Below, one piece after another: positions 37-26,654 of a stretch of DNA of 32,691 bases. Every line of letters begins with the position of its first letter. Positions within the stretch are counted from its first letter, which is position 1. This stretch comes from an uncultured bacterium (GTDB lineage: Bacteria; Poribacteria; WGA-4E; WGA-3G), in contig CAZURU010000007.1 in the NCBI GenBank assembly GCA_964623585.1, forward strand, positions 1 through 32,691, given 5' to 3'. The translations under genes and the position numbers were made by a program. The notes under the pieces are model-generated. The model saw only the letters and a program-made list of their open reading frames with translations. It was not told the origin of the DNA and did not search any database.

Positions 37-395
37 TCATTGAAGTGGGACAAAGACGATTTGGTCCACAAATTGATCTTCTTTGGATGTACCAGCGATT
101 CGTATCAACTCGCGAAGAATCGTTCCCATTGACACATTGGGATTAATCATGAAAACTCCCGGCACATGGTGTCCTGCTGCCAGATGGTCAGAAAGATGTT
201 TTGGTATAGTATTTGGATCATTTGTCACCAAAATGAAATTATGCTGCTCACACCACTTTAGGATTTCAGGGTCTGGTATGCTTCTCGCGGGGCACCATCA
301 TTGCCAATCGCCAAAACTGTTATTGATGGTTTATGAAATTGCAATTGCGTCCGGTATTTTGGAGAAATGTTTTCATCTATCAAATACCGAAGCAT
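37..395 (-). pseudogene. DUF5615-type PIN-like toxin gene, split by a 1-nt frameshift
   Basis: ATG at 395 gives MLRYLIDENISPKYRTQLQFHKPSITVLAIGNDGAPREAYQTLKS, then TAA at 258-260. A second frame, open from 297 to 37, continues PDPEILKWCEQHNFILVTNDPNTIPKHL...VFVPLQ. Joined, they give the MxxxLxDEN ... DPEIL ... ILVTxD pattern of DUF5615 (Mut7-C/PIN-like). The span is 359 nt, one nt short of in-frame. The ATG lies 2 nt after the stop of the upstream DUF433-ending gene. Confidence 0.6.
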
Positions 396-397
396 TT

Positions 398-3300
398 CTA
401 TTCCTGTTCTTTTTTTGATGGAGATGGTGTTGTTGCGGAGTCGTTTTTAGGAATGTTCATGTGTGAATCATCAGATACAACTTGTCTTTCTGCTTTAAGT
501 TGACGTAGTCGAACAACACCCGACGGCGGATTCTTTTCGTATTCCTCCCGTAAGATCTGGCTGAACTGGAGTTTATCTGCTAAATAGCTTCCTATTTTTA
601 TGGGATTTTGGAGGTAATAAAGAATCGTAGCGTAAACCTCTTCCAATCTCAGTGTAGGATAGTTATCAACAATGTCCTCTGGAGTTTGTGACAGGTGAAG
701 AGATTCATACAAGACAGTTTCAATACCGATGCGCGTGCCTTTTATTCGAATTTCATTCTCTGACAAAAAATCAAAGTTATCTTCAATAGTTGGATAGAAT
801 TGTGAGTAATCCTCAATTTGTCTAAGAATATGATTCTCAGTAGGGGAATATATAATATATCTGCCTTGAATTCGATTTGCAAGTTGTCTCAGTACTGCCT
901 TGCTTGATCGTTCTGCCGTAAGTCCAGCCAATAATCCGAATGTCAGATATTTGCGCTGACTATGAAGCATTGGTTCTTGCAACAGCTGAAAGAGGAAATC
1001 GACTGAAGCGTTTAATGCTTTTTGTAGACCCATCTTTTGCCCGTTCAGAGCATGGACTAAACTATTAAAGGGCTCAATAAGGTTCCAATTTGCCTGTTTT
1101 AATGCTTCCATTAACGTGTCCGTATCAAACTCCGTGTGATAGTAGTTGGAACAGACAAGTTGAATTGCCATTTTATTGTACTCATTTTTATCAAGGACAT
1201 TTTGATTTAGGCAATGTTCCAAAACAACTTGTGTCCACACACCTTCAATTTGGAAGTTTGTTCCAGCATCGTCGTTGAGCTGGGATTTTGCGTAGGTTCT
1301 AAGTCGTTCATCGTCCGAAAGGAGTAGGTATTCTGACTGACTTGCGATGAGAAGCGTGTCTATAAATAACGGTTGAAGCCTGCCATCTAATTCCTTTTTT
1401 CGGAGTTGATTCATTTGTAGTGCAGCGGTGCCTGGAATAACCTCACAGTTTTCCCTAATCCATTTGATCAGGTCTTTTAGACGTTCTACGCTACGTTTTA
1501 CATCATCAGGGTTTATCATGTGTCTTACATATCGGTTCCCTTGTTTCTCAATGCTCATACCTTCTCGTTGCGACCACATACCTTCTTGTTCATGAATCAT
1601 TTGCAAAAGGGCATCAATAGTTGTTTGTGCAACAGCAAGTTTTCCAAAAGTTTTGACAACAGTATTGGCAGCTTCTAAACAGTGTAAGGTAATTAGCGAA
1701 ATAAAGTCCACTACTAATTTAGGCTGCGAATTTTCGAGCAATGCAAGAGCATTTCTTCTCTCTTCAGCACTTCCTAAACAACACCTGATACCTAAGTCAG
1801 GCTTATTTATGAGAAGACTCCACAAGTCTAACACATTGTGCCCTGTCCAACTCATGAAAACTCCGATTGGAGGTTGGTGTTCTTTATATACATTTTCAAT
1901 CTGTAGCGAGGCTTCGTGTTGTTTGTTAACAATGTCATACAACGGTTGAAATTTTGCTGGATCATCAGTCTCTTTAGAATCGTCTAATGTTATGGACCCC
2001 ATTCCTTGATCCTCAGGAAAGAGTTTAGGAAATTTGCGGAAACTCTCTTGGAGGGCATCAACATATTTGCTTTTAATGGCAGTGATTTTTCCCCTTCTTG
2101 TTGTACCGGTCAATGTTTTCCCATAGATAACTTTTTCATTTACAGTTTTACCAAGTAGTCGCTTTACAAAAGGTTTTTTGATATTTTGTTCTCTACGTTC
2201 AATATCTGCATCATCACGGTCAACTATAATATACGAGACAGATTCATCGGAACTGTCAATTTGGACAGCTGTATCTTTTCCAACTTTAGTGGGGTTTAAT
2301 ACCTCAGGAATTTGCTTTTCTACTTGATAGAACAATCCAATGTATTTCAGATGAGCATCAGGTTCTTTGGAATACGTCCTTCGCGCTTCGTACATGATCT
2401 GAAGTGCTTTTTCTGGTTGAGATCTGACCTGATGTAAATGGGAAAGCTGAACACATGCTGGCAAAGAAAGACCCTTAATAATAGTAATATCATTAGAATT
2501 GAGAATACTATCTAGCAAATTATCAATATCATCTTCTTTGCAAGCACGATAGTAAACCATTCCGAGACGGATTCGCATATCATTATCGTTATGATATTTC
2601 TTCAAATATTCCTTACATACTGCTTCGGCTTGGTTCATATCGCCGATTTGTACATAAATAATGACCTCCATCTCAGTTACATTTTCAAGCGGGCCATATT
2701 TCTTTCGGAGTCCTTTACAAATTTCAAGTGCCTTTCCTATTTCACCAGCGTTATAGTAACTTTGTAGCAACCATTGTGTCAATTGAGAATTCTGGTTTGT
2801 ATTAGCAAGTTTTTCGTAAAGTGTTGCTGCTTCTTTAAATTGGTCATGATTGTAGAGTTGATCAGCTAATTCCAATTTATCATGTAGATTTTCACTATCT
2901 TGAACATAGTTGCATGCCAATTTGAGTTGGGAAATAGCCTCTTCACGCTTTCCAGTTTTACTTGAAATCATAGCCGCGTTGATAAGATTCAATACATTTG
3001 TCGGAGATGATTCCAGCATAGGTATTAGTATTTGTTCTGCATCTTCAAAACGTTCTATAGCTATATAATTACGAACAAGAAGACGATTTGCCTCATCTTG
3101 TAATTCAGAAGGTAAGTTGGTCTTTAAAAAATCGGTGAGTTTGGTTATTGCTTCTTCATAGCAATTATTTGCAAATAGAATATTAGCAATTAAAATCTGA
3201 GCTTCAAAGATTTCTGGTTCTGACTGAATTCTTTCCAAATATTCAATAGCAGCTTCATGATTCCCTTGTTCAAATGCCAATATCGCCCTATTTTTTAATA

Positions 3301-4726
3301 GCATAGATAACTTAGAGTCCAACGGTTCAATTTCTATGGCTACATCAAGATCTTTAATTGCGTCTTGTGATTTACCAAGAAGTCGTAGAGCTGTACTTCT
3401 GTTAATTATCCAATCTGTTCGAGCGATTCGTAACTCAGTATCGGCAACACTATCCCATGCTTCTGTTAAAAGTTCCACAGCTCGACTTAATTGTTCCTTT
3501 TCTGAATCGTGGGACTGAATGGTATACATGTCAGAACGATCATCCAATATTTCTTGGATCAAAATTGTTGCAAGTGAAGCTTTAAAACCCTGGTTATTTT
3601 CCAGTTCCCCTGCCACGGAGATTTCACCCCATTTTTTCGCTTCTTCAAAATTTCGGCGTTGCTTTGCGATCTCACTTATAGCATGTGCAATTTGTCGCGT
3701 ATCTCGTAAATAGTCAGGAATTTTAGCAATTACTTCTTCAAGTGGTACTTCCGCCGCAGAAATTCCAATAAGGATAATATAGGCATCCTTATTTGTCTCA
3801 TTCTTTTTTAATGCCTGCTTTGCGTAGTCCGCAGCTTTTTCCGTTTCTCCCAGTAAGTGGTGAGCTATAGCCCGATTAGAAAGTGCCTTTTCATCTTCAG
3901 AATTATATTGAAATGCTTCAATTATCAACTTTGCTGCTTCTCGTTCGTTATTAAGAACAGACTGAGCAGCTGCCATATTTGTTAAAATGTTAAATTTTGA
4001 GATTTTTGAAGTTGAAGTTTCATTCCCAATGCGCTGCCATAAGTCATCTAATCGTTTAAAAGCAGTTTTGGGGTTGTATTCAAGTAAATCTTCTTTCGCA
4101 CTGTTAATTATTAATTGGTGTTCTTTTGCCAGTGCAGTATCAACTGCATCAGAAACAATCAAATCAATGTATTTGCTTGAAAGATTAGGTGGTTGTGCAT
4201 GTAACCATTGGATTCCATCCAGGATTGCTTGGTTTTGTTCCCTTAAATGCTTTTGGCCTTCCAATTGTATTCTATCGGATTCAAGCATCATTTGAGTAGC
4301 AGCCTGTTGGTTGTGTGGTAAACGGTCATTGAAATTTGTGATTGCTTTTTCTATAACCGGTTGGAGTCTATGCACAAGTTCTTCAGTTGTAAATTGATTT
4401 CCGGGCCAAATAATACATTTTTGAAAAAGCTCTGTGACATTTAAAAGTTTTTCGTTTCTGTCTAATGAAACCAATTCAGTGATATTAAAATCTTCGAGAG
4501 AGGCAAGGACCTGATCAAGCGTGTTCTGATCTACCTTAATTATTTTTGGATTGTCGATATTGACAAGACGCGCAAGACGCGGGGCAATTTGCTTAACTGC
4601 ATCAACAAATGATTTTTTGAAAAGATCTTCTGGTGTGCTGTTGGTAAAGTGTTTTCTAATGACATCAACACCACCAACAATTGAGGCACTGCCAGATACG
4701 AGATTTATAAGTTCAAGTATTTCCAT
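398..4726 (-). CDS. Giant 1442-aa multidomain protein: unknown N-domain, TPR-like solenoid, GreA/GreB-C-like domain, PIN-like domain, C-terminal DUF433 HTH
   Basis: Uninterrupted 4.3-kb ORF. Helical TPR-like repeats span aa ~215-800 (nt 2327-4084). Aa 812-886 (nt 2069-2293), VGKDTAVQIDSSDESVSYIIVDRDDADIERREQNIKKPFVKRLLGKTVNEKV..GKITAI, fits the GreA/GreB C-terminal pattern. Aa ~1003-1200 (nt 1127-1720), KLVVDFISLITL ... SEYLLLSDDERLRTYA, fits the PIN acidic-residue pattern. Aa 1318-1375 (nt 602-775), IRIKGTRIGIETVLYESLHLSQTPEDIVDNYPTLRLEEVYATILYYL, fits DUF433. A consensus promoter lies upstream. Confidence 0.85.
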   Translation of the reverse strand: MEILELINLVSGSASIVGGVDVIRKHFTNSTPEDLFKKSFVDAVKQIAPRLARLVNIDNPKIIKVDQNTLDQVLASLEDFNITELVSLDRNEKLLNVTELFQKCIIWPGNQFTTEELVHRLQPVIEKAITNFNDRLPHNQQAATQMMLESDRIQLEGQKHLREQNQAILDGIQWLHAQPPNLSSKYIDLIVSDAVDTALAKEHQLIINSAKEDLLEYNPKTAFKRLDDLWQRIGNETSTSKISKFNILTNMAAAQSVLNNEREAAKLIIEAFQYNSEDEKALSNRAIAHHLLGETEKAADYAKQALKKNETNKDAYIILIGISAAEVPLEEVIAKIPDYLRDTRQIAHAISEIAKQRRNFEEAKKWGEISVAGELENNQGFKASLATILIQEILDDRSDMYTIQSHDSEKEQLSRAVELLTEAWDSVADTELRIARTDWIINRSTALRLLGKSQDAIKDLDVAIEIEPLDSKLSMLLKNRAILAFEQGNHEAAIEYLERIQSEPEIFEAQILIANILFANNCYEEAITKLTDFLKTNLPSELQDEANRLLVRNYIAIERFEDAEQILIPMLESSPTNVLNLINAAMISSKTGKREEAISQLKLACNYVQDSENLHDKLELADQLYNHDQFKEAATLYEKLANTNQNSQLTQWLLQSYYNAGEIGKALEICKGLRKKYGPLENVTEMEVIIYVQIGDMNQAEAVCKEYLKKYHNDNDMRIRLGMVYYRACKEDDIDNLLDSILNSNDITIIKGLSLPACVQLSHLHQVRSQPEKALQIMYEARRTYSKEPDAHLKYIGLFYQVEKQIPEVLNPTKVGKDTAVQIDSSDESVSYIIVDRDDADIERREQNIKKPFVKRLLGKTVNEKVIYGKTLTGTTRRGKITAIKSKYVDALQESFRKFPKLFPEDQGMGSITLDDSKETDDPAKFQPLYDIVNKQHEASLQIENVYKEHQPPIGVFMSWTGHNVLDLWSLLINKPDLGIRCCLGSAEERRNALALLENSQPKLVVDFISLITLHCLEAANTVVKTFGKLAVAQTTIDALLQMIHEQEGMWSQREGMSIEKQGNRYVRHMINPDDVKRSVERLKDLIKWIRENCEVIPGTAALQMNQLRKKELDGRLQPLFIDTLLIASQSEYLLLSDDERLRTYAKSQLNDDAGTNFQIEGVWTQVVLEHCLNQNVLDKNEYNKMAIQLVCSNYYHTEFDTDTLMEALKQANWNLIEPFNSLVHALNGQKMGLQKALNASVDFLFQLLQEPMLHSQRKYLTFGLLAGLTAERSSKAVLRQLANRIQGRYIIYSPTENHILRQIEDYSQFYPTIEDNFDFLSENEIRIKGTRIGIETVLYESLHLSQTPEDIVDNYPTLRLEEVYATILYYLQNPIKIGSYLADKLQFSQILREEYEKNPPSGVVRLRQLKAERQVVSDDSHMNIPKNDSATTPSPSKKEQE

Positions 4727-4798
4727 CGATTTCTACCCTTGTCAAAAATTTATTTCATAGTGTCTTATCAGTTTATCTGTTGCTACTTTTATTTTATC

Positions 4799-4827
4799 AT
4801 TATAGCATATTTATGTTGCGTAGTCAA
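4799..4827 (-). promoter_or_regulatory. Sigma70-type promoter for the giant gene
   Basis: The minus strand reads TTGACT (4827-4822), a 17-nt spacer, then TATAAT (4804-4799). This is ~70 nt upstream of the ATG at 4726. Confidence 0.5.
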
Positions 4828-4880
4828 GGTAAAAGGAGTCTGAGTTAAAATGATTAAAGTTGGTGATTGTTAGAACGGGA

Positions 4881-5006
4881 TTAACCACTATACCAAATCG
4901 GGAAAGCAAGTTCTTTCTTCTTAAGCCCTACCAACTCCGAAGCAAGATCACATTTCAAAATTTCATAATGCAAAGTTGGCAATTTCTTCAAGTCCGATAT
5001 TACGGA
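4881..5006 (-). pseudogene. 3-prime stub of a type IIG-like RM gene (paralogue of the C-terminus of the 990-aa protein)
   Basis: The minus-strand frame reads SVISDLKKLPTLHYEILKCDLASELVGLKKKELAFPIWYSG*. The 990-aa protein ends ...GITSDNVLESMQTLREML..KCDLDAELMGLKLKGVAFPSWYDG*. Hand alignment of the last 25 codons (4881-4955 vs 10262-10336) gives 60/75 identical nt. No start codon or N-terminal body is present. Confidence 0.65.
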
Positions 5007-5791
5007 TTAATCCTTACATTCCACACAGAAAGTTCACCTATAATTTCCTTGTCTGGAATTTTATCTAAATCCATTAAATCATATAGATCTTTTCCTAAAT
5101 ATGTTGGGGTTGCCAGAAGCATGTGACTCGCGCAAAATTTATAATCTTCAATTATTGGTGCTTGAGTTCCTGAAATTATATAATTTTTGATTAACTTTAA
5201 CATTTCTCTACTTATGTTATGAAATTTATGTTTATCATCTTGGTTCATTTGATTTATTTTTTTTGCTAATTTATCATCATCAACTGGATCGTATTCCCAT
5301 TTTCCATGTCCGTGGTCATACTCTATTATAAATTTGATAATACACAAACATCTATATGATATCGAATCTATTATATCAAAATATTCAAATGCACTCCCCG
5401 CATCTATTCTAGAGTTTTCCATTAGTTGTATATTTTTCCAAAAGGATCCGATATATCTACTTTTTTTACATTGAATGTCAAGTAGCATAGATTTTATGGT
5501 TCTATAAAATATTTTAGATGGGTTATTTGTAGTGTTTTCACTATACCAATCTGTCCTTAAAGATTTCTCTTGAAATTCGATATCATTTTGAGCTTGCTTT
5601 ACTGCTTCAACTATCGAATGTGTTATATTTTCCTTTATAAATTCTGGCTCATTGGGTAACATTCTATTAATAAGATTTTTTAAATGCTTAGGTATAGACT
5701 GCATTGTCTCTATATTAGAAACAAAACTTAATATTTCCTTAGCTGCTATTTCTTCAGTAGCTATTTCAATTAATTGCATAATTTCATTCAT
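5000..5791 (-). CDS. Hypothetical protein, 263 aa, extremely AT-rich orphan
   Basis: Long ORF in a very AT-rich stretch, with AAGGAG 15 nt upstream of the ATG at 5791. I recognise no motif. No HEPN Rx4-6H, P-loop or HExxH signature was seen. Confidence 0.55.
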   Translation of the reverse strand: MNEIMQLIEIATEEIAAKEILSFVSNIETMQSIPKHLKNLINRMLPNEPEFIKENITHSIVEAVKQAQNDIEFQEKSLRTDWYSENTTNNPSKIFYRTIKSMLLDIQCKKSRYIGSFWKNIQLMENSRIDAGSAFEYFDIIDSISYRCLCIIKFIIEYDHGHGKWEYDPVDDDKLAKKINQMNQDDKHKFHNISREMLKLIKNYIISGTQAPIIEDYKFCASHMLLATPTYLGKDLYDLMDLDKIPDKEIIGELSVWNVRINP

Positions 5792-5939
5792 TATATTATG
5801 ATATACTCCTTAAACGTTCACAATGGATAGTTTGTACTGCCAGCGGATACTCCTTTCAGTATATGGATATTATACAACAATCTTGTTTTAGAGAGGGTCC
5901 GAATTTCCGATGGTTGTACACCTAACAAACTCACTTGTG

Positions 5940-6262
5940 TGATGTCCGCTTTCCTTCACTAACAACTTTTTTTGTTCAGTTTTGAGTTGAAGTAAGGGAA
6001 CAACAGCGGATTACGGATTTTTCCCTTGTTCTTCTCGGGCCTTTAGGCAGAATTCCATATAATCCACAAAATGAGCACTTACTTTTTGTTGATTTTGAAG
6101 GAATATAGAATTGTGGCGTAGGCGTGTTATAACGTTACCGTGTGTAAACGTTGGTCAATCTCTTCTTGTGTTTTGCCATAGAACAGATTCTATACCTATA
6201 GGTGTTCCCTTGATAAGAACATCATCTTCAGCCAAAGAGTTGAAGTAATCTTCTATTTGCAT
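5940..6262 (-). pseudogene. Decayed DUF433 gene, paralogue of the C-terminal ~110 aa of the giant protein
   Basis: From the ATG at 6262: MQIEDYFNSLAEDDVLIKGTPIGIESVLWQNTRRD*, with TGA at 6155-6157. After a frameshift it reads EEIDQRLHTVTL*HAYATILYSFKINKK. A third frame reads FVDYMEFCLKAREEQGKNP*SAVVPLLQLKTEQKKLL. This is colinear with giant-protein aa 1303-1415 (QIEDY..IRIKGTRIGIETVLY..PEDIVDNYPTLRLEEVYATILYYL..LQFSQILREEYEKNPPSGVVRLRQLKAERQVV). There are at least 2 frameshifts and 2 in-frame stops. Confidence 0.65.
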
Positions 6263-6361
6263 GTTTAGATCTCTTAAGTTGAAATCAGCATTTGCTTCAT
6301 TTTACCAATGTGATTCATCTGATATAAACCTTAAACTGATGACTCATTAAAAGCACAAGAG

Positions 6362-7684
6362 TTACTCTAAAATAAAATTACCTTCTGCATCAAAGGCAGG
6401 AATCCATTTTTTCTCAAAACCAAAAGCCTCATATACCTCTTCGACTAACTTATAAGCAACATGATCTGGGACAAAATTTGAGTCAACAGTCCGTTTGGAA
6501 ACAATCGATTTTTGTTCCATGTATACATTTCTCTCGTCTTGAAATCCAGCAAATATAACATTGGATGGATTCCCTTTCGGTAACATAAATCCTTTAAGAT
6601 TATGATACTCTTGTTGGACAGAAATTCTTGAATTAATACCAGATGTCTCATAGATTGTCTTAACCAATCTCAGGAATGACACCGGGAATTCACATACTAC
6701 GAATGGATATAGCCACGGAGTGGAAATTCCTGACTCCTCACGTCTCCATTGAAATGTTCCAGAATTAAGTGGACAACGAACTTCAAGATAACCATTTTTT
6801 AATTGAATGATTTCCCCGCCGGTAACATTAGGACCTCTAATTCCCTCAAGCGAAAAGGATACTTCTCTTTCCAAGATTCCTGTCACGCCAAAGTTTCCGT
6901 AACGTCTATTTGGTGGATTAAATAAGATTCTACGTATATCCTCATTCTTTGTATTAACAACGTTAGGATTGAGGTTTTCAGGAACAGCGAGGATGCGGTA
7001 ATAAGGTTGACCTGACAGATCATTATCAAATCGCAATTTCATTAGATGAAGTAAATCTTTCGCTTCAAATTGTTCTAAAGGATCATCCTCAAGTGTCATG
7101 GAATTTCTTCTGTCTACATCCATGTTTCGTAATATTGTATCCAATTTTGCCTCCATCTGAGTCGTAATTGGGGGTTGATAACGCATTAATAGATCTTGAA
7201 TCAGCTCGGATATAGGAAATTCTCTTGTATCATCTCCATATCGCTTCACAAAATTGGTTGAGTTTTTCCATTTAAAACTGTGAGGACGCATTCCACTCTG
7301 CGGAATATGAATAATTACAAGATCAATATCTTTATTATTCCATTTCAGGGAGCAAGGCTCTACCTCAAAATTAGGGATTCGTGGATCAATATTTTGCAAG
7401 CAAATTCCCTTGATACTTTTAGCAATGTTTACAGCATCAGGTACTGGACAGAAACCTTGGGCAATCTTATTCTTTTCCGATATACCAATGATAATATAAC
7501 CTCCTTCTGCGTTGGCCATTGCTGTAACATCTTTGCAAATTTCGCGTTTTCGCTTATCAGCATCATTGGGATCTTCGGGATAATCTTGCTGTTTGAAGTC
7601 AATCCATAGGTTTTCTTCCTGTTTACCAATAAGATCCTTCAGTTCTTGGTCAGTAATATGAGAAATGGGACGATTTTCAAACAT
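6362..7684 (-). CDS. AlbA_2 (Schlafen-type divergent AAA DNA-binding) domain protein with unknown ~270-aa C-terminal domain
   Basis: The N-terminal ~150 aa (ELKDLIGKQEENLWIDFKQ ... ICKDVTAMANAEGGYIIIGISEKNKI ...) fit the AlbA_2 pattern. The ORF-track start at 7786 adds 34 Cys/hydrophobic residues with no RBS. The ATG at 7684 (MFENRP) has GGAG 13 nt upstream and is preferred. Confidence 0.7.
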   Translation of the reverse strand: MFENRPISHITDQELKDLIGKQEENLWIDFKQQDYPEDPNDADKRKREICKDVTAMANAEGGYIIIGISEKNKIAQGFCPVPDAVNIAKSIKGICLQNIDPRIPNFEVEPCSLKWNNKDIDLVIIHIPQSGMRPHSFKWKNSTNFVKRYGDDTREFPISELIQDLLMRYQPPITTQMEAKLDTILRNMDVDRRNSMTLEDDPLEQFEAKDLLHLMKLRFDNDLSGQPYYRILAVPENLNPNVVNTKNEDIRRILFNPPNRRYGNFGVTGILEREVSFSLEGIRGPNVTGGEIIQLKNGYLEVRCPLNSGTFQWRREESGISTPWLYPFVVCEFPVSFLRLVKTIYETSGINSRISVQQEYHNLKGFMLPKGNPSNVIFAGFQDERNVYMEQKSIVSKRTVDSNFVPDHVAYKLVEEVYEAFGFEKKWIPAFDAEGNFILE

Positions 7685-7811
7685 CGTTAAATTCAGACTC
7701 CTTTTTAAAGCAGTATCACTATGAACAAGTGAGCATGCCCTACAATATGCAAAGGTATGAACGAGTATAAACACAACTAAAGTCATGAAATTATCCTCTG
7801 TATGAGTATGT

Positions 7812-7928
7812 TTAGCGTGTTTTGTTTAAAGGATCAGGTTGTTTAACCTTGTGCTGTTGACTAATCACACCTTGGATACTCGGTTCAGTCCTTTCGTGTT
7901 TCAAGATAATACCATCAGTTAGTAACGC
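7812..7928 (-). pseudogene. Second 3-prime stub of a type IIG-like RM gene
   Basis: The minus-strand frame reads ALLTDGIILKHERTEPSIQGVIS..., against SLLIDVLGI...LREMLCAEPSIHGG in the 990-aa protein. At DNA level, cacaccttggatactcggttcag (7868-7890) matches cccaccgtggatactcggttcag (10348-10370) at 21/23 nt. The stub starts immediately after the stop codon (7929-7931) of the upstream remnant and diverges after EPSIQG. Confidence 0.55.
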
Positions 7929-8625
7929 CTAGTTTCGGTCAAATATACATTCACGAAGTTCCTCGTAGACCTTGGTTTCCTTCGTGATACATTTTGAGAG
8001 ATTCTTTTTGAACATATCTGTACTGATGTTCGTCTTTATACCACAAAACTTCTTTATTCGATCAATTTCATCTTTGACGTTTTGATTATTAATATCCGTA
8101 ACAAAGTTATCATAGTCTTCCTCACTGAACATTAGACCTTCAGACTGACAGTATTTTACTAGTATTTCTTTATCAAAGAGATAATTTTCTAATTCCCAAC
8201 GTCTGAGGACTCTATGGTGAGTTGGATTGTTAACCAAATAAAATTGACGATCCCCCTCTTGAACTAATTTTCCAGATGCCATATCACGATCTTTGAGTAC
8301 CCAAATTTCCATGTTTCGCAATTCCTTACCAAGAATTCGTATTGTTATGTCCCTTCGTTGATCCAGTTCGGTTTGTCCACCACTTGACACAAAAACAGTA
8401 TCGGGAAAATCACGAGAAAATATAATTTCGTAAATAGAATTCTGATTTTTCAGTACCGTATGAACGAAACTTTTGTAATTCTTGCTCAAAAGCATCAAAT
8501 ACAGAACTCTTTCCACACCCGTTTGGTCCAACCATAGCAACTATCTTTTTTGGTTGTTGCCCAAGATCAATCGTCAAATCATCAAATCGCTTAAATCCAG
8601 TCATTTTTACGGTGTTAATTCTCAT
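7929..8625 (-). pseudogene. Collapsed P-loop ABC-ATPase / Toprim (OLD- or PARIS AriA/AriB-like) remnant
   Basis: The ATG at 8625 has GGAGA 6 nt upstream. MRINTVKMTGFKRFDDLTIDLGQQPKKIVAMVGPNGCGKSSVFDAF is the N-terminus plus Walker A of SMC/OLD-type ATPases, but the frame stops at 8410 after 71 aa. The overlapping frame down to 7929 encodes ..IWVLKDRDMASG..HHRVLRRWELENYLFD.., resembling the C-terminal half of DUF4435/OLD-type Toprim domains. The 697-nt span is far too short for an intact member of either family. Confidence 0.5.
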
Positions 8626-8852
8626 TTTTATTCTCCATTTTAGATTGTAATTAATTATGAATTCACTTAGAATAATGGTTCCAATATCAAGATAGGAAAT
8701 TATTACTCATTGTAGACACTTGTGAAGTCAACCCATTCCAGCATAAGATAAAGGATCGGCTAACAATAAACATGTATAATTATACCATTAGGCGAAATAA
8801 ATGTCAAGGCAAATTACGAATATTACATAATATATTTATTATTATTTTCATC

Positions 8853-8881
8853 TTTACTTAGAAATAGTCATGTGGTATAGT
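8853..8881 (+). promoter_or_regulatory. Putative sigma70 promoter with extended -10 for the XRE/ImmA operon
   Basis: TTTACT (8853-8858), a 17-nt spacer ending in TGg, then TATAGT (8876-8881). This lies ~35 nt upstream of the ATG at 8917. Confidence 0.35.
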
Positions 8882-8916
8882 AAATACGGTATATCAACAC
8901 CTAAAGGAGCATAACT

Positions 8917-9327
8917 ATGAAATTAGGTCAACGCCTACGCCAGATCCGTAAGGGAAAGAAATTGACTCTTAAAGAACTGAGTCTACAAGCCAATATTTCA
9001 GTTCCATATTTGTCGGATATGGAACGTAGTGTTGTAAATCCATCAATTGACACACTTCAAAAGGTAGCAAAAGCGTATAACATGACCGTCAAAGATCTAA
9101 TTACCGATGTTGATGAACTTGGTGAATCAACATATGCGAATTACCCTGACGAATTTACATCATTTCTTAATGAGTATGAAACGACCTACAATATTGATAA
9201 TGATTGGAAAGAACTATTGATGAAAATTAACTTTCGGGGAAAACAACCCACAACTGTCACAGAATGGCTTGAGTTATATCTTTATCTCAAACGGATTTTA
9301 TCACCAGGAGAAGATAATAATGAATAG
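8917..9327 (+). CDS. XRE/Cro-CI family helix-turn-helix transcriptional regulator (136 aa)
   Basis: MKLGQRLRQIRKGKKLTLKELSLQANISVPYLSDMERSVVNPSIDTLQKVAKAYNMTVKDLI is a canonical HTH_3 pattern. AAGGAG lies 7 nt upstream of the ATG. Confidence 0.88.
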   Translation: MKLGQRLRQIRKGKKLTLKELSLQANISVPYLSDMERSVVNPSIDTLQKVAKAYNMTVKDLITDVDELGESTYANYPDEFTSFLNEYETTYNIDNDWKELLMKINFRGKQPTTVTEWLELYLYLKRILSPGEDNNE

Positions 9328-10156
9328 TGTACAAAAACAGATAATTCAATTGGTGCGAAACACCGTCAATACATATTCGTCAACGCCTATTCCAAATATT
9401 GATGAGATTTGTGATGGTTTAGGATTAGAAATTAGGGAAGATACCATTACAGACGGTAGAGACGGGATGATTGTTGACAAAACCAATATTATTATCAACT
9501 CTAAAATAAGATACGAAGAACGAAAAAGGTTTACAATATTTCACGAAATCATGCATTATCTAATTGATAATGACGACGATTTAATCTCTATACTAAACGC
9601 ATACACTCTTTATAAGGATGGTGAATATGATAGACAATTAGAGATATTTGCGAACATTGGAGCAGCTGAATTTCTGATGCCGAGTGAGGAATTAAGAAAA
9701 CTATATGAAGAAAAAGATTTTAATGTTGAGTTGATTCTCTATGCTGCCAAACTATTTAAATCTTCAACAATTGCTGCAACAATCCAACTTGCTCAAGTTG
9801 CACCAAATGAATGTATTACAGCTATTTGCGAATTTACGCAGGATAAAACAACTCTTATGCAATCCCAGATTATTACTCAGAAAGAAAAATCTCTCAAACG
9901 AAAGTTGCATGTAAGCTATGCTGCTTCGTCACCAAATGTTAAATACATGTTGGCAAAAAATACAGTTATTCCGGGTGATCATCTGATACAGGATGCTTTT
10001 TTACAAGATGTTCCAGTTGAAGGAAAAAGTTACGTTCCTTTTCGGAGTGGTAAAAAAATGCCTTGCTACTGTGAAGCATTGGCAGATGGTGACAGGATCT
10101 ATGCGTTATTCCATTTGACACCTCCACCGAATCCTGACCAATTGAGCCTTATTTAA
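9320..10156 (+). CDS. ImmA/IrrE family zinc metallopeptidase with ~130-150-aa C-terminal extension (278 aa)
   Basis: FTIFHEIMHYLIDND contains the HExxH motif in an ImmA/IrrE-like context. The ATG at 9320 overlaps the upstream stop (ATGAATAG) and has GGAG 9 nt upstream. The ORF-track start at 9269 lies inside the HTH gene and is rejected. Confidence 0.85.
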   Translation: MNSVQKQIIQLVRNTVNTYSSTPIPNIDEICDGLGLEIREDTITDGRDGMIVDKTNIIINSKIRYEERKRFTIFHEIMHYLIDNDDDLISILNAYTLYKDGEYDRQLEIFANIGAAEFLMPSEELRKLYEEKDFNVELILYAAKLFKSSTIAATIQLAQVAPNECITAICEFTQDKTTLMQSQIITQKEKSLKRKLHVSYAASSPNVKYMLAKNTVIPGDHLIQDAFLQDVPVEGKSYVPFRSGKKMPCYCEALADGDRIYALFHLTPPPNPDQLSLI

Positions 10157-10261
10157 GATTTTCTGTTGATGATATTAAATTTTAAGTACTTGAGGCATTA
10201 GGCATAGAAATGGAGTTTCGATTGCTTGATATGTATGGACTCATAGATCGTGTCTATTGGA

Positions 10262-13234
10262 TCAACCATCATACCAACTCGGAAAAGCAACTCCCTTCAG
10301 CTTAAGCCCCATCAACTCCGCATCGAGATCACATTTAGACTGCTTCCCACCGTGGATACTCGGTTCAGCGCAGAGCATCTCGCGAAGTGTCTGCATAGAC
10401 TCCAATACGTTATCACTTGTAATGCCCAACACATCAATCAACAGCGAACGGTCTAATTCCTCGCGTACAGGATCATGCGCGCATTCGTTAACTGGCAGCA
10501 TCCGTTTATATTTCAACCGTTCAAATATCGCCTCAGCATTTGCTAATGCCTCATAGGAGAGTTCACGGACATCCAGCGTAGGTAGTGTCCCTAAGGTATT
10601 GAGTGTTAGAATACCGCGACCCGCTTGTTGCTTTCCACTATGTATCCAATGGCACATTAAGCCCAATGTTGAGTTACACCACAGCGCGAAAGCGGTTTCG
10701 TGCTGTGGACTTTCAAATGCTACGTTAGTTATCCTGTTAACCCCAACCGAAGGTGCCGCCGTTACGAGTACCAGGGTTGAGTTGGCATTGAATCTCAAGT
10801 ACAAATTGTAATGAGCTCTACTGTTTTTAGTCAGGATTTTCCGAAGATTTTCTTCTGTGTTCCCACGCGGGATGCCTTTAGAGTCAGGTTCAACAAACAT
10901 TGATCGCTGAGTTTCACTTTTCAAACTCCATAGACAAGGATATCCATCGCCCTTGGCATCACCTTTAATCATGTCAAACGGTCCGTCTTTTCCATAGACA
11001 CTTTCTGGGTGCCATCCAACCTGCGCTATGTCCTCTACACGACACATAGGGACTTCAACATTAGTTGTTTGCATCGGTAAATATAGGACACCTCTTTGTA
11101 TGCTATATGCAGCCTGAATCAATGCCATCGATCGTACGCGCGACACTCCCCAACCCTCACCAAGTAAGAGTGGACAGTCTAACATTTGTCCAACAGTGTC
11201 ATTGCCAATTCTGATTATATCTCCGCCATTAGGCGCGTCTTCTAAGCGTCGTGTGCTGTCGTTTCGGTTAACATAGTTCGCAATTTCGACCGCTTCTAAG
11301 ATGCTCTGTGGTCGCCTGTTCAGGGATATGAATTTCCCTAGTCCTGTATCGGCACCCGTTCCTTTCTTTGCTACCACAATGCATTCTGCCATGCCAGTAT
11401 CCGCGGAGAACGCCGCGTCTTCTGCCTTTGCTTCGGCAATGGTAAGGACCATGACGTTGTGATATTCTATTGCCAACATGCCACGCATTTTTTGCATTGT
11501 AGATGACGTTAGAATTGTTGCTGGCAAAATGAAACCCATTGTGCCACCGTACTTAAGTTTCCTGTCTGCAAGGTCTACAAAATAGGATGCGAGTCCGCTC
11601 AAGCCATGTGCTATTCGCGAATCTTTACCTCGCAGTACTGCCTGCATTGCCTTCTTATCTACCTCTGGACGATCACTGCCCTGGAATGTGGTTTTTGGTA
11701 TACTACTACCTTGATCTGTTCCTGGTTTCGTAAAGGGTGGGTTTTGAATCACAATGTCAACATCACTATGCTGGAACGTCTGCTGGAGTTTGACTACGGT
11801 GTTCTCCTCACCGCCTACTTGTTCAGCCTCTGTATCAAACAGTTTCATATCATCAAGCAATTCCAATGAACCGATAGCGTAACCGCCACTATCCATGATC
11901 CCATAAGGTGCAGTTACTATTTGTGTGCCACCGATTTTGATGTCAGCATAGGTACTGGCAAGTGCTGCAGCAGTAAGGTGTGTAGCATTTGGCATAATAT
12001 CTACACCGCCAAGGTTCTCCTCTAACATTTTTTGATGGATCTCCCTGCCGTTGCCACCTGCTTGTTCATACAGAGACAAGATACGTTGATAGACTCCGTT
12101 GAGCAACGCGCCTGTGCCGCATGCAAAGTCTGCAACTTTCGGGAGTTTACCCTTCGGCAGTTCAGGCATCACAAGCGTAGAGAGCAACACCGCACTTTCG
12201 GGAAGTGTGTAGTTTGCTTTGACGTATTTTCTATCAGTGATGAGCTTCTGAAATACGATACCCGCGAGTTCGTGTATCTGTGCGATACCGGTATCAACAA
12301 GGTCTTTGGCAGCCTCACATAAGAGCCTTAAGATATGTTTGACAAGTTTGTCATCAGTCGCGAGTGCTTCAACGAGGTTACGCGCATCTTCAAAGATGGG
12401 ACGATAGTTAACCTTGAGGATTGTGTTCCAGTCATCAATAACATCAGCATAATCAATTGTCGGGAGGAGTTGACGGAGTGAGCGGACATATTCCATCTCT
12501 GTTTTACCAGCAAGGGAACTCTGAAACACAAAAGCATCGGTGATTATCAGTGCTGCCATACGGAGCGTTTGAATGTTGGGGATTCGCGATTCAGGGATCG
12601 CTCCTACAGAAGAATCTTCCTCAGAAAAGACCTCTTGGTGCAGAATAGTCTCAATTTTCTTGCCGATAGCAGGATGTTCAACGATAGCATCTTCAAGTAG
12701 GTAAGCTGCCTTATTGACGCTTTTCTCCATATCTTCAGCTGCCGCTTCAAGGTGAGAGTTCGGCATTGCACCGACGCGGAGTGCATTTGCTATGTCCGCA
12801 ACCGTACCTGTTGCCCATCCGTTTGCCGGGAAATGTCCAACGGTGTCACCCACGGTATTGACAAGCTTGTATTGGAGGTCATCCGCATCACGTAGTTGTG
12901 CGTTGATATCCCTTCCAGGCATCGTCTTAAATCGGTCAGGATATAGGATTGCCATGACGTTATTGAGGGTTTTTCCAACGACGTGGTATTCCGTTTCAAG
13001 TTCGAGAACAAGTCTGTCTTCTGCTTGGGTAATAAGATTCTTGGCATTCGTCGTGGTCAAAAACTTTGCTTCAATGCCGACAGGTTCTCTACCCCGTTCA
13101 ATAACGATAGCATCAAGTTCACTGTTGCCTTTAAAGAAGGCATTGACTTCGGTTTCGAGTTCCCATCCGTGACGCATGTGCCGTAAGATGTTCACTAATT
13201 CATTTGTGATTGTGGTTTCGCGTCTTTTTGGCAT
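10262..13234 (-). CDS. Single-chain restriction-modification enzyme candidate (type IIG/IIL-like): N-terminal PD-(D/E)xK-like nuclease, gamma-class N6-adenine methyltransferase, C-terminal target-recognition region (990 aa)
   Basis: SAM motif I DFACGTGALL (nt 12101-12130) precedes motif IV NPPF (nt 11732-11743), the gamma order. N-terminal ELDAIVIERGREPVGIEAKF gives D41-x13-E55-x-K57. About 480 aa follow NPPF. No separate methylase or specificity gene is adjacent. Confidence 0.75.
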   Translation of the reverse strand: MPKRRETTITNELVNILRHMRHGWELETEVNAFFKGNSELDAIVIERGREPVGIEAKFLTTTNAKNLITQAEDRLVLELETEYHVVGKTLNNVMAILYPDRFKTMPGRDINAQLRDADDLQYKLVNTVGDTVGHFPANGWATGTVADIANALRVGAMPNSHLEAAAEDMEKSVNKAAYLLEDAIVEHPAIGKKIETILHQEVFSEEDSSVGAIPESRIPNIQTLRMAALIITDAFVFQSSLAGKTEMEYVRSLRQLLPTIDYADVIDDWNTILKVNYRPIFEDARNLVEALATDDKLVKHILRLLCEAAKDLVDTGIAQIHELAGIVFQKLITDRKYVKANYTLPESAVLLSTLVMPELPKGKLPKVADFACGTGALLNGVYQRILSLYEQAGGNGREIHQKMLEENLGGVDIMPNATHLTAAALASTYADIKIGGTQIVTAPYGIMDSGGYAIGSLELLDDMKLFDTEAEQVGGEENTVVKLQQTFQHSDVDIVIQNPPFTKPGTDQGSSIPKTTFQGSDRPEVDKKAMQAVLRGKDSRIAHGLSGLASYFVDLADRKLKYGGTMGFILPATILTSSTMQKMRGMLAIEYHNVMVLTIAEAKAEDAAFSADTGMAECIVVAKKGTGADTGLGKFISLNRRPQSILEAVEIANYVNRNDSTRRLEDAPNGGDIIRIGNDTVGQMLDCPLLLGEGWGVSRVRSMALIQAAYSIQRGVLYLPMQTTNVEVPMCRVEDIAQVGWHPESVYGKDGPFDMIKGDAKGDGYPCLWSLKSETQRSMFVEPDSKGIPRGNTEENLRKILTKNSRAHYNLYLRFNANSTLVLVTAAPSVGVNRITNVAFESPQHETAFALWCNSTLGLMCHWIHSGKQQAGRGILTLNTLGTLPTLDVRELSYEALANAEAIFERLKYKRMLPVNECAHDPVREELDRSLLIDVLGITSDNVLESMQTLREMLCAEPSIHGGKQSKCDLDAELMGLKLKGVAFPSWYDG

Positions 13235-13517: not shown

Positions 13518-15854
13518 CTATTGTTTTCTTTTGTCTGCTGACCATTGACACCTATCGATCCAATAACGCGCTGAGAGTTTTGTTCCTTTATGGAGTGTTT
13601 CAATATTTGCTATTTCTGTAAATATTGCCGCAGCAGTTGCGTAATCTTTCTGATAGTAATTACAGATTCCTAATAACCGCTGGGTTCTTAATAGTATATC
13701 TAAATGAATCTCTTTGTCATCCGAAACTTGATGGAGTTCCACTACCTTGTTCAAATAACGTATACTTAAATCCCATGACCTCTCTTTATACAGTAACTCA
13801 GCAATGAGATAATAAGCTAACCATTCTTCAGGTTCTCCAGCAATTATCTGATGCAGCAGTGCCATTTTGGTAGCACTTCCTACCTGTCCATCTGAACTAA
13901 CTGAAATTAGGACATCTCTTAACAACTCTTGTGTTTCTTTGCCGTAGCGACTATTCAATGACGCAATCCGAGATAATATCCTGCGACTGGTCAATTCTCT
14001 TGGTGCATAAGATGTCGCATCTTCATATAGAAACAGTGCTTCGTTTACATTGTCATTCAACCATTGCATATCACCCAAAAGTAATGAAACTTCGGCTTTA
14101 TAAGATGAATCCTGTCTCTTCATAAGTTGTCTTGCATACGATTCCGCGAGGTCAAAATCTTTCGCTTGAAATGTACTATACATCAGCCCTCGCAAGGTCA
14201 GTGGATTGTCAGGTTCATGGAATAGCATTGAATTAAATGTTCTGATAGCAGCCCTATAATCCTTTCTGTAATATGCGTTCCAGGCTTTTGCGCGTAATGA
14301 AGCCATCTCGTGCGCGCACACCTGTTCAAATATTCCACCACGTTTAAGTCGCCGTTCTGCATACCTCTTTTCTATTTCTGTCAATAGGACTGTATCTGAT
14401 AAGAAGTCCAGCCATTCTTGCTCTAATTCAACTAATTCCTTCCCATATACCTGAGTTAAATTCCCAGTTGGAAAGGCATCCTTTAGCATATCAATACCAT
14501 ACGCATCAACAAGATAACGAATAAATGATCCAGCCAGTAGGTAGCTGCGTGATCCTGCATGTCTCCAAAACCCTAACCCGATTACACTGGATAGAGATGG
14601 TGCGACGTTGAGTTCACGCATCGCTCTTGCCCATTGGTGAACTGTGAGTTTTCCTTCATCCCAATCTGCTGCAACTGCAATACCCTCGTGAATACCTACG
14701 TTTAGACTTACTTTCCATGGAGACCAATCGGCTGTGAAGACGTGTGCAAGTTCATGCTTTAAGACAGGATGTGGGAATCCCTGAACATGTAAATGGAATC
14801 CGTACCCAAACGGGTCCTCAACATAAGTATTGCCAGCACCTATCAGCCGTTTCTTCTGCTCTGGTGAAGTATATAGATAAGCACGCACTTTTCTGGAAAT
14901 GTCAGACTGCAAATATTTTTCCAACTGTGAGTACTGAAACTCACAGTCATCAGCGAATAGATCTATATCTTCTTCAAGGTCTTGTGAATAGTATATCTTA
15001 AAATGGGCTGTTTCTCTAAATCCTCCTAATGCTTGTTCTATATCACTGCGTGATGGACGGATGCCTATTTTCCCGGCGAATACTTCAAAGCACATAATAG
15101 AAATGAATAAGACACACACGACAGCAGTCCCCCAAACGGACTTTCTATATTTCAGAACGTTCAGTTTTCTCCAATTCAGTTTTGGTATAAAACCGCTCTC
15201 TCTCCCGATTTCACACGTCATGATAGAGACAGATGTAAACAAAAAAGCCAATACAAACGTTTCAGTTCTTGAAAATATCAACACATCTGTAATGGAGATT
15301 ACGAAATCATAAATCGGACCTGGGAAATAACCGAGAATTGGATGATATGCAAATACAGGTGGGTGAAATATCAGATTAGAAATAACAGGAATTAACGACA
15401 CTAACAGAAACACTATGTATGAGAGATAAGATAGCCATCTCTTCTTTATCAATAGACCGAAAAAAACACCTGCAGCCGTTACTGCTAAACAACTTAACAC
15501 GGGTAGAATAAGATAGAAAAGAAAACCCTCGCTGTAATCGCAGTTTTTTACCCTTAACGAGTTTAGCAGTATGATCACTAAAGGGACAATTAGGAGAATA
15601 GCATTGGCGTATAGCGCACGGATGAGACATTCAAGGACGACTCGTTTAGGTGAACCCGACAGTAATTCCGGTTGTTTCTTTAGAACGTGAATTTCAGTGA
15701 TAGCAACATGTGCTGCAGCAAATGAAATACATAAGGTTACTATAGCACAGAACTCATATCCCAAGATATTAAACAGGGGAATTGTCGTAAGAATGAATGA
15801 TAGACCAACAAAACCAGCGAACCAAAGCCAGTATGAAACAGTTTTAAAAATCAT
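13518..15854 (-). CDS. Polytopic membrane protein with Peptidase_MA-like (HExxH) domain and C-terminal TPR repeats (778 aa)
   Basis: The N-terminal ~260 aa hold multiple hydrophobic helices. VLKHELAHVF ... GIHEGIAVA matches a gluzincin HExxH plus downstream E, as in Peptidase_MA_2. The C-terminal ~280 aa are TPR-like. Confidence 0.75.
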   Translation of the reverse strand: MIFKTVSYWLWFAGFVGLSFILTTIPLFNILGYEFCAIVTLCISFAAAHVAITEIHVLKKQPELLSGSPKRVVLECLIRALYANAILLIVPLVIILLNSLRVKNCDYSEGFLFYLILPVLSCLAVTAAGVFFGLLIKKRWLSYLSYIVFLLVSLIPVISNLIFHPPVFAYHPILGYFPGPIYDFVISITDVLIFSRTETFVLAFLFTSVSIMTCEIGRESGFIPKLNWRKLNVLKYRKSVWGTAVVCVLFISIMCFEVFAGKIGIRPSRSDIEQALGGFRETAHFKIYYSQDLEEDIDLFADDCEFQYSQLEKYLQSDISRKVRAYLYTSPEQKKRLIGAGNTYVEDPFGYGFHLHVQGFPHPVLKHELAHVFTADWSPWKVSLNVGIHEGIAVAADWDEGKLTVHQWARAMRELNVAPSLSSVIGLGFWRHAGSRSYLLAGSFIRYLVDAYGIDMLKDAFPTGNLTQVYGKELVELEQEWLDFLSDTVLLTEIEKRYAERRLKRGGIFEQVCAHEMASLRAKAWNAYYRKDYRAAIRTFNSMLFHEPDNPLTLRGLMYSTFQAKDFDLAESYARQLMKRQDSSYKAEVSLLLGDMQWLNDNVNEALFLYEDATSYAPRELTSRRILSRIASLNSRYGKETQELLRDVLISVSSDGQVGSATKMALLHQIIAGEPEEWLAYYLIAELLYKERSWDLSIRYLNKVVELHQVSDDKEIHLDILLRTQRLLGICNYYQKDYATAAAIFTEIANIETLHKGTKLSARYWIDRCQWSADKRKQ

Positions 15855-26579: not shown

Positions 26580-26654
26580 GGGGGATTGTCCTTCAAAGTT
26601 ATTTGTAATTGTATCTATAACTTTAGGACATCTGCCCACTTTATTCAACTATTT

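Follow-up and report, generated by a model that had tools for sequence, protein, structure and literature searches.

A lineage of TPR-GreA/B-C-PIN proteins with a C-terminal DUF433 domain and an adjoining DUF5615 gene in Candidatus Poribacteria

The reverse strand of a 32,691-nucleotide (nt) stretch of contig CAZURU010000007.1 (assembly GCA_964623585.1), from an uncultured bacterium of the Poribacteria, carries a giant gene at 398..4726 (-); the whole stretch is called the window here. The gene is intact, a single open reading frame (ORF) of 1442 amino acids (aa) with an ATG start and the stop codon TAG at 400-398. From N- to C-terminus its product consists of a helical N-domain, a TPR array, a fold of the GreA/GreB C-terminal type (GreA/B-C), a PIN nuclease domain, a group of C-terminal helices and a DUF433 domain. 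That the gene belongs to the TPR-GreA/B-C-PIN (TGP) family of anti-phage proteins is nearly certain. The DUF433 end, judged by its sequence relatives, is the captured antitoxin half of a DUF433/DUF5615 type II toxin-antitoxin pair. The fusion is real, is under selection and marks a conserved family rather than a one-off event.

The original prediction, made from the letters of this DNA, had taken the fusion and the adjoining toxin gene as a candidate for an undescribed conflict system. Its observation is confirmed and its interpretation is partly supported. The five domain calls (N-domain, TPR, GreA/B-C, PIN and DUF433) proved right. The core of the architecture had been described before, as TPR, GreA/B-C and PIN behind a variable N-terminal module make up the conflict system of Kaur, Iyer, Burroughs and Aravind (2021, eLife; PMC8195603), represented in Pfam by PF20698, and Agp of the Bab/Agp pair, one of its members, gives resistance against phage T5. 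Nor are these modules normally separate small proteins, as had been supposed; they form a constant block in more than 1000 relatives. What is new with respect to the literature is confined to the fusion with DUF433, the partner gene DUF5615, the linkage to methylase genes and the orphan N-domain.

The TGP core and its N-terminal domain

In front of their constant region, published TGP proteins carry EAD10 or one of 13 effector domains, and the systems are "mostly standalone genes" (PMC8195603). According to the model of these authors, GreA/B-C docks on phage-hijacked RNA polymerase, the PIN domain cuts the extruded transcript and the N-terminal effector fires on failure (PMC8195603). DUF433, COG2442 and DUF5615 are not mentioned in the paper or its supplementary files, in which the only C-terminal additions are "TM" segments (PMC8195603). 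The giant protein shares with this family the TPR array, a GreA/B-C domain between TPR and PIN, the special PIN domain with its acidic residues and full-length PF20698 match, and the C-terminal helical module, a block that follows an N-terminal module at the place where the family is variable. It differs in its extra C-terminal DUF433 with the coupled DUF5615 gene, in having conserved methylase neighbours where the published genes mostly stand alone, and in an N-module that matches neither Pfam nor solved or predicted viral structures. From PADLOC 2.0 and NCBIfam no usable name was obtained for any of the giant protein, the DUF5615 product and the short form described below, and the DefensePredictor paper makes no mention of the giant-protein architecture.

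The PIN domain spans aa 1005-1148 (1283..1714 (-)). A whole-protein Pfam scan matched it to PF20698, "PIN-TPR-GreABC", at E=2.5e-27 and 96 bits against a cut-off of 27.8, over profile positions 1-138 of 138; the Pfam name of the entry is "PIN domain associated with the TPR-GreAB-C-PIN system". The acidic residues D1007, E1046/E1048, D1123 and D1138/D1139, some of which had been singled out beforehand as a PIN-like signature, are invariant across 18 diverse homologues. The TPR array extends over aa ~245-735 (2522..3994 (-)), with TPR_14, TPR_19, TPR_2, TPR_16, ANAPC3 and others above the Pfam cut-off. There is no NTPase family among the Pfam or NCBIfam matches of the protein, in agreement with the original prediction, and its sole Walker-A-like string, at aa 446, lies within a TPR helix. 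Because the protein has no NTPase, and hence not the central P-loop STAND NTPase of STAND/Avs proteins, the comparison that had been drawn with STAND/Avs sensors holds as a loose analogy only.

The GreA/B-C domain (aa ~809-899, 2030..2302 (-)) was recognised by below-cut-off Pfam and NCBIfam matches together with a profile and a structural comparison. GreA_GreB (PF01272) was matched at aa 817-885 with E=0.002 in the whole-protein scan and with E=2.6e-4 in a further Pfam scan, both under the cut-off, as was the NCBIfam GreA match. Among PDB sequences, the best match to a family profile made from 22 homologues over aa 795-910 was E. coli GreA (1grj, E=2.9e-4), the alignment falling on the GreA C-domain and taking in its ..LIGK..DD.V motif. 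An AlphaFold model of aa 800-1442 is confident at aa ~810-900 only, and the top nine PDB matches of this model in Foldseek were GreA, GreB and Gfh1, each with a probability of 1.00 and with superpositions at a root-mean-square deviation of 1.7-2.7 Å over 75-81 columns. The RNA-polymerase-binding protein Rnk (3bmb) was a lower-ranked match. The GreA/B-C fold is the domain that docks GreA and GreB on RNA polymerase.

The PIN domain is followed by a helical module, aa 1149-1310 (797..1282 (-)), which is the C-terminal end of ordinary family proteins. An exhaustive HMMER search with aa 1000-1320, the PIN domain and the helical region after it, gave 1139 relatives at E<=1e-3. Among typical relatives of ~1250-1350 aa the match ends 5-15 residues from their own C-terminus, at giant-protein aa ~1300-1312. 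Since these matches reach nearly to the relatives' own C-termini, ordinary family members end where residue ~1310 lies here, and the lineage adds ~130 residues beyond this point.

At the other end, aa 1-140 (4307..4726 (-)) form a lineage-specific helical module with a Gly/Ser-rich hydrophobic opening and no recognisable family. The helical segment at aa 141-240 (4007..4306 (-)), placed before the TPR array, belongs to the constant region of the TGP family. Profile positions ~150-235 match the equivalent position in dozens of ~1300-aa relatives, and aa 1-140 are not shared by other TGP-family relatives. Since aa ~150-240 are homologous to the pre-TPR segment of many relatives, the truly variable module comprises aa 1 to ~140. 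The effector or adaptor position at the N-terminus of TGP proteins, held elsewhere by EAD10, TIR, PNPase, HNH and other domains, is filled here by a folded helical domain of ~140 aa. AlphaFold predicts it as helical with pLDDT (predicted local distance difference test) values of 84-94 at aa 30-135, the Gly/Ser-rich first 30 residues being weak.

The N-domain matched nothing in Pfam at E up to 10, and its family profile gave spurious matches only among PDB sequences. With Foldseek, the best E against the PDB was 0.79, a match to the Rx coiled-coil domain at E=1.5 was not significant, and the best E against viral structures (BFVD) was 0.56. A HeLo- or Bell-like pore-forming head was considered for this domain and found unsupported, as the hydrophobicity of the first helix lies under the usual transmembrane level and neither a HeLo or Bell match in Pfam nor such a fold in the PDB was obtained for the N-domain. 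It is the most divergent part of the protein between the two clades described below, with 36-47% identity compared to 60-62% for the core.

The DUF433 end, its toxin gene and natural variants

The DUF433 (COG2442) antitoxin-type domain occupies aa 1314-1415 (482..787 (-)) and is a lineage-specific addition. The whole-protein Pfam scan placed DUF433 (PF04255) at aa 1327-1371 with E=1.7e-8, over the cut-off, and the best PDB match of this end is 2ga1, a DUF433 protein. When 150 cluster representatives were examined with a local DUF433 model, the domain turned up only in the 3 closest, all of them fragments of this lineage. DUF433 is among the best-conserved segments of the giant protein, with 62% identity between clades and 83-85% within them.

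A metagenome scan yielded 78 stand-alone DUF433 genes, encoding proteins of ~107-140 aa that are 50-60% identical to aa 1314-1415. The flanking sequence was long enough to judge for 72 of them, and in 55 of these a DUF5615 gene follows at most 150 nt downstream. The reading of the C-terminus as a captured canonical DUF433/DUF5615 pair proved right. DUF433(COG2442)-PIN pairs were predicted and later validated as toxin-antitoxin systems, among them vapBC10 (PMC3834315) and the COG4634/PIN_10 Mut7-C-like groups (PMC5499597). The order seen here, DUF433 and then directly a DUF5615 gene, is that of such pairs, for example VapBC10 of Synechocystis. Compared with the stand-alone pairs, DUF433 shows 50-60% and DUF5615 41-52% identity. 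The difference is that the antitoxin here makes up the last ~130 residues of a sensor-type protein of 1442 aa instead of being a small protein by itself, and that the toxin copy is frameshifted.

The DUF5615 (Mut7-C-like PIN) toxin gene lies at 37..395 (-). As had been noted in the original prediction, it begins 2 nt after the giant stop codon, with its ATG at 395-393. The reading frame breaks after ~35 codons, and alignment to intact orthologues identified the break as a 1-nt deletion, a run of C5 that is now C4 at 289-292. The repaired product matches PF18480 at E=1.2e-10 over profile positions 2-107 of 110. The window therefore holds no intact toxin of a type II pair, the DUF5615 gene being frameshifted; the frameshift may equally be a real inactivation or an assembly error, and if it is real the giant protein's own PIN domain would be the sole arm left in this window. 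Intact DUF5615 orthologues at the same 2-nt spacing are found in seven related loci (L001, L002, L003, L006, L010, L091 and L092). Of the 12 loci retrieved that carry a giant gene, whether full-length or truncated, 10 keep DUF433 followed by a co-oriented DUF5615. Toxin loss also occurs in nature, loci L008 and L009 being without DUF5615. There an intact clade B giant gene is followed by a deletion of DUF5615 (L009 12408-12761, also L008) that has left only the first three codons (ATGCGTCGG), 2 nt past the giant stop.

The DUF5615 gene appears to be translationally coupled to the giant gene, and the 2-nt spacing between stop and start is kept in most loci. The giant protein ends in a low-complexity tail, aa 1416-1442, which with the stop codon covers 398..481 (-); its last codons, ..GAACAGGAATAG, lie directly 5' of the DUF5615 start codon. 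The end of the tail, "..SPSK(N/K)EQE", is kept among homologues, "..SPSKNEQE" being one form of it. Because the codons GAACAGGAATAG occupy the expected position of the DUF5615 ribosome-binding site, tail conservation may be at the nucleotide level.

At least 117 homologues of 1400-1500 aa, with 52-74% identity and 98-100% query coverage, were found among the matches listed, and conservation in these full-length homologues extends throughout the protein. Two clades can be told apart, ~52-57% identical overall, with the gene of this window in clade A. A scan of GTDB genomes with a single protein gave 4 loci, all in metagenome-assembled genomes of Candidatus Poribacteria and patchy among genomes; a scan of viral contigs gave no matches. 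Both clades can occur in one genome: L002 and L009 lie on the same 6.5-Mb contig, and P0020 and P0117 on the same 110-kb contig. The clade A copy of L002 stands beside an Eco57I-like methylase gene, the clade B copy of L009 beside hsdM.

Several natural variants of the protein are known from these searches. Two loci have truncated giant genes covering only aa ~911-1442, one a 532-aa ORF from PIN to DUF433 (L006, 6965-8563) and the other frameshifted (L007, 6977-8576), each with an Eco57I-like gene before it and an intact DUF5615 gene after it. A short form of ~470-480 aa (~477 aa) was found with the N-domain profile and accounts for dozens of 90%-identity clusters among the 120 matches listed (proteins P0131-P0215 and others). 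It lacks the TPR, GreA/B-C and PIN domains and is built, as in its member P0140, from the N-domain, a short stretch corresponding to aa 961-985, and aa 1200-1442 with the C-terminal helices and DUF433. In both short-form loci examined (L091, 7001-8437; L092, 7001-8404) the gene is preceded by hsdM and followed by DUF5615, within a type I restriction operon. A sister protein, P0245, shares N-domain and constant block with the giant protein but has no DUF433; its locus has neither a DUF5615 nor a methylase gene. The truncations (L006, L007 and the short form in L091 and L092) always keep the DUF433 end with an intact DUF5615; in this window, with its broken DUF5615, and in L008/L009, which have lost theirs, the giant gene is still intact. 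Truncation thus keeps DUF433 and toxin, and toxin loss spares the giant gene, an asymmetry of the kind that toxin-antitoxin logic predicts.

An adenine-methylase gene lies directly upstream in 12 of 13 distinct DUF433-bearing loci, either an Eco57I/PglX-like gene or the hsdM of a type I operon. Co-occurrence with a type IIG-like methylase gene, which had been proposed as a check, is therefore real across loci. The clade A giant gene follows a gene for an Eco57I/PglX-type adenine methylase of ~990 aa, and an Eco57I-like gene is directly upstream in L001, L002, L006 and L007. The clade B order is hsdM, giant gene, DUF5615, an optional pair of C5-methylase and HATPase genes, hsdS and hsdR. The ancestral upstream neighbour in this window is the 990-aa Eco57I/PglX-type (type IIG-like) adenine methylase gene at 10262..13234 (-), whose product matches PglX/BrxX structures in its methylase motifs only. 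The 3' end of this gene recurs as a 78-nt copy at 4878..4955, 81% identical to 10259-10336, which marks the ancestral junction and sits directly upstream of the giant-gene promoter. As direct repeats of the methylase 3' end flank 4956-10258, the 5.3-kb block between the methylase and giant genes is an insertion.

The promoter-like site, TTGACT-17-TATAAT with an upstream TG, is at 4799..4827 (-), ~70 nt 5' of the giant ATG. It has 11 of 12 matches to the consensus and is kept in orthologous intergenic regions, whole in L001 and as the -10 element only in L002, which upholds the earlier assignment of a promoter of its own, set against a count of promoter-like sites in the region that shows no excess overall (16 compared to 16.2 in shuffled sequence).

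Possible roles of the fusion

By analogy with the systems above, we lean on balance towards a reading in which the giant protein docks on RNA polymerase, cuts RNA through its PIN domain and uses its DUF433 end to bind and silence the DUF5615 ribonuclease (RNase) as a releasable second effector. GreA/B-C would dock the protein on RNA polymerase, as proposed for the TGP family, and the TPR array would sense a phage-induced state, upon which the protein's own PIN domain would cut transcripts. DUF433 would meanwhile keep the DUF5615 RNase attached to this scaffold and inactive, until activation or degradation of the giant protein freed it as a second, cell-arresting RNase. Placed right after an adenine-methylase gene, the module would act behind restriction-modification. 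The data establish the identities of the domains, the conserved fusion, the joint occurrence of DUF433 and DUF5615, the 2-nt coupling and the linkage to methylase genes; RNA polymerase docking, toxin tethering, the trigger and an anti-phage function are all things we infer here. If this model is true, a defence sensor has gained an effector by fusing an antitoxin, the toxin being kept as a releasable partner and no toxic domain being fused.

Several observations weigh against this reading. Position Ser124 of GreA is not conserved in the giant protein, which keeps only LLGK..DE.V of the GreA motif; we take Ser124 to be the equivalent of the mutated Agp S628, solely from the six-residue spacing of two Agp mutations. 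The AlphaFold model of aa 800-1442 has a mean pLDDT of 57.7, so that its GreA/B-C part alone is usable and the packing of PIN and DUF433 is unreadable. The short form keeps DUF5615 without the sensor core, which means that the DUF433/DUF5615 pair does not need the core. The giant gene, in turn, persists where DUF5615 is broken, as here, or deleted, as in L008/L009, and so can be kept without it. An upstream methylase gene is missing from one of the 13 loci, L011, and PADLOC 2.0 does not recognise the giant protein.

The fusion could be incidental. In this main rival explanation, which is somewhat unlikely, a selfish DUF433/DUF5615 addiction module landed 3' of a TGP gene, and its antitoxin became joined to the TGP protein when a stop codon was lost. 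The pair would then only stabilise the methylase-TGP locus, or DUF433 would be a DNA-binding autoregulator, and DUF5615 would be no sensor-controlled effector. The strongest argument for it is the ~477-aa short form, with DUF433 and DUF5615 and without TPR, GreA/B-C or PIN, and it also draws on the loci in which DUF5615 is lost or broken and the giant gene survives. VapB10, a DUF433 antitoxin, binds its own promoter (PMC3834315), and links between toxin-antitoxin and restriction-modification systems are common (PMC5499597). Against an incidental origin, the fusion has been kept in two clades that are only ~52-57% identical as well as in the short form, and no examined DUF433-bearing locus has the antitoxin back as a separate gene. 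The short form, moreover, always pairs the orphan N-domain with DUF433, which points to a functional unit beyond a plain antitoxin.

A decidedly unlikely alternative is that the module guards a restriction-modification system. The fast-evolving N-domain would contact the methylase or restriction complex next to it, which is Eco57I/PglX-like for clade A and HsdM for clade B as for the short form, and phage inhibition of the complex would unleash the DUF5615 RNase held by DUF433, plus PIN where present, in a manner likened to PrrC/EcoprrI. The PrrC anticodon nuclease lies in the EcoprrI locus and is kept latent by EcoprrI. Like nucleases in restriction-modification loci, the module stands between hsdM and hsdS/hsdR or right after a type IIG-like methylase gene, but what is embedded here is the gene of a giant TGP protein and neither an anticodon nuclease nor a small toxin-antitoxin pair; PIN-like toxins beside hsdM/hsdS were noted by Matelska et al. 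(2017; PMC5499597). The position right after an adenine-methylase gene in all loci but one, and between hsdM and hsdS/hsdR in clade B and the short form, fits such a guard. So do the two clades that can share a genome, each beside a different methylase type, the greater divergence of the N-domain than of the core, the retention of exactly N-domain and DUF433 in the short form, and the absence of DUF433, DUF5615 and methylase gene from P0245 and its locus. This linkage could, on the other hand, simply reflect clustering in defence islands; L011 does without a methylase gene, a conserved promoter of the giant gene's own separates it from the methylase gene, and in this window the 5.3-kb cassette parts the two genes without the giant gene having been lost.

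It is very improbable that the giant protein is a housekeeping TPR scaffold or GreA-like transcription factor without a role in conflict. Its orthologous loci do sit among housekeeping genes, and TPR proteins are abundant in Poribacteria. Its PIN domain is, nonetheless, of the PF20698 type, specific to a conflict system, it has a coupled toxin gene and a linkage to methylase genes, and the paralogues, truncations and gene decay seen in the lineage are typical of defence genes. The named organisms of the homologous loci, furthermore, are confined to one phylum, with a patchy presence among genomes.

Amyloid signalling of the Bab/Agp type is improbable in the extreme. Agp of E. coli ECOR25, the only relative that has been tested, gives protection from phage T5 jointly with Bab, a Bell-like protein; Agp is a TGP protein, mutations in its GreA/B-C domain abolish T5 resistance, and its amyloid motif is at residues 2-25 (10.1101/2024.11.07.622273). 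Both proteins share the TGP architecture, and Agp needs an intact GreA/B-C. Agp signals by an N-terminal amyloid motif shared with the adjacent Bab, whereas the giant protein has a folded orphan N-domain and a C-terminal arm derived from a toxin-antitoxin pair. The N-terminus here is hydrophobic, Gly/Ser-rich and conserved, and might likewise be a motif shared with a partner cell-death protein. A second copy of the N-terminal 35 residues was found neither in the window nor in 15 related loci, which leaves a Bab/Agp-type pairing unsupported, and there is no adjacent small Bell-like gene. The segment also precedes a folded helical domain of ~110 aa rather than the TPR array directly, and HeLo and Bell are absent from the Pfam matches and from the PDB folds found.

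Returning to the reading with a releasable DUF5615, it may be combined with the guard, although we consider the combination unlikely: an immune sensor would use a covalent antitoxin as the leash of a separate toxin, the whole unit guarding a restriction-modification system. In this combination the N-domain would read the methylase or restriction complex and GreA/B-C and TPR would read RNA polymerase, either signal freeing DUF5615. Were this true, one Poribacteria operon would hold a three-layer defence of restriction, PIN transcript cleavage and DUF5615 cell arrest, and the ~477-aa short form would be a minimal version of the guard.

The TGP family gains a lineage with fixed methylase neighbours, which makes the question of what the family senses easier to approach. 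The short form, the PIN-DUF433 fragment and the DUF433-less sister protein make up a natural dissection series. The building blocks and the kinds of linkage each have precedent; the design of an antitoxin as a tether and the truncation series merit experiments. To our knowledge the hosts have not been cultivated, and since the named ones, Candidatus Poribacteria, are known only from metagenome-assembled genomes, tests must be heterologous.

Neighbouring genes

The prediction of a defence-type island stood in part. Defence-type genes do fill positions 1-15.8 kb of the window; they are followed by purC, an FtsX-type permease gene and sugar-metabolism genes, and the orthologous loci of the giant gene sit among housekeeping genes. 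The 5.3-kb block (4956-10258) contains a 263-aa gene, a 474-aa Schlafen/AlbA_2 gene, a 203-aa gene and a divergent pair of a helix-turn-helix (HTH) gene and an M78 peptidase gene. The Schlafen/AlbA_2 protein is the PADLOC candidate PDC-S50, the 263-aa and 203-aa genes are without a known family, and the HTH and M78 peptidase pair resembles the CapH/CapP defence regulators. The block looks like a defence cassette exchanged by recombination. Just upstream of the Eco57I-like gene is a gene for a 778-aa TPR protein with no other recognisable domain (13518-15854 (-)), and further along the contig lies a DDE_5 transposase gene (25227-26648 (-)).

Clade B loci have, between DUF5615 and hsdS, a C5 DNA methylase gene overlapping a gene for a ~675-aa HATPase_c_3 protein (L003 13125-16245; L010 13504-16612; L008/L009 12762-15876). 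This pair may be a further embedded module. L091 has in place of the HATPase gene a gene for a 1481-aa protein with a weak NACHT match. A protein that combines HicB-like antitoxin and DUF6575 domains recurs beside hsdS in these type I operons (L003 17980-19356; L010 18641-19231; L092 10501-11133). Directly upstream of the short-form type I operon of L092, at 2889-5122, is a CBASS-like pair of a SMODS cyclase and a Cap17-like/TIR effector.

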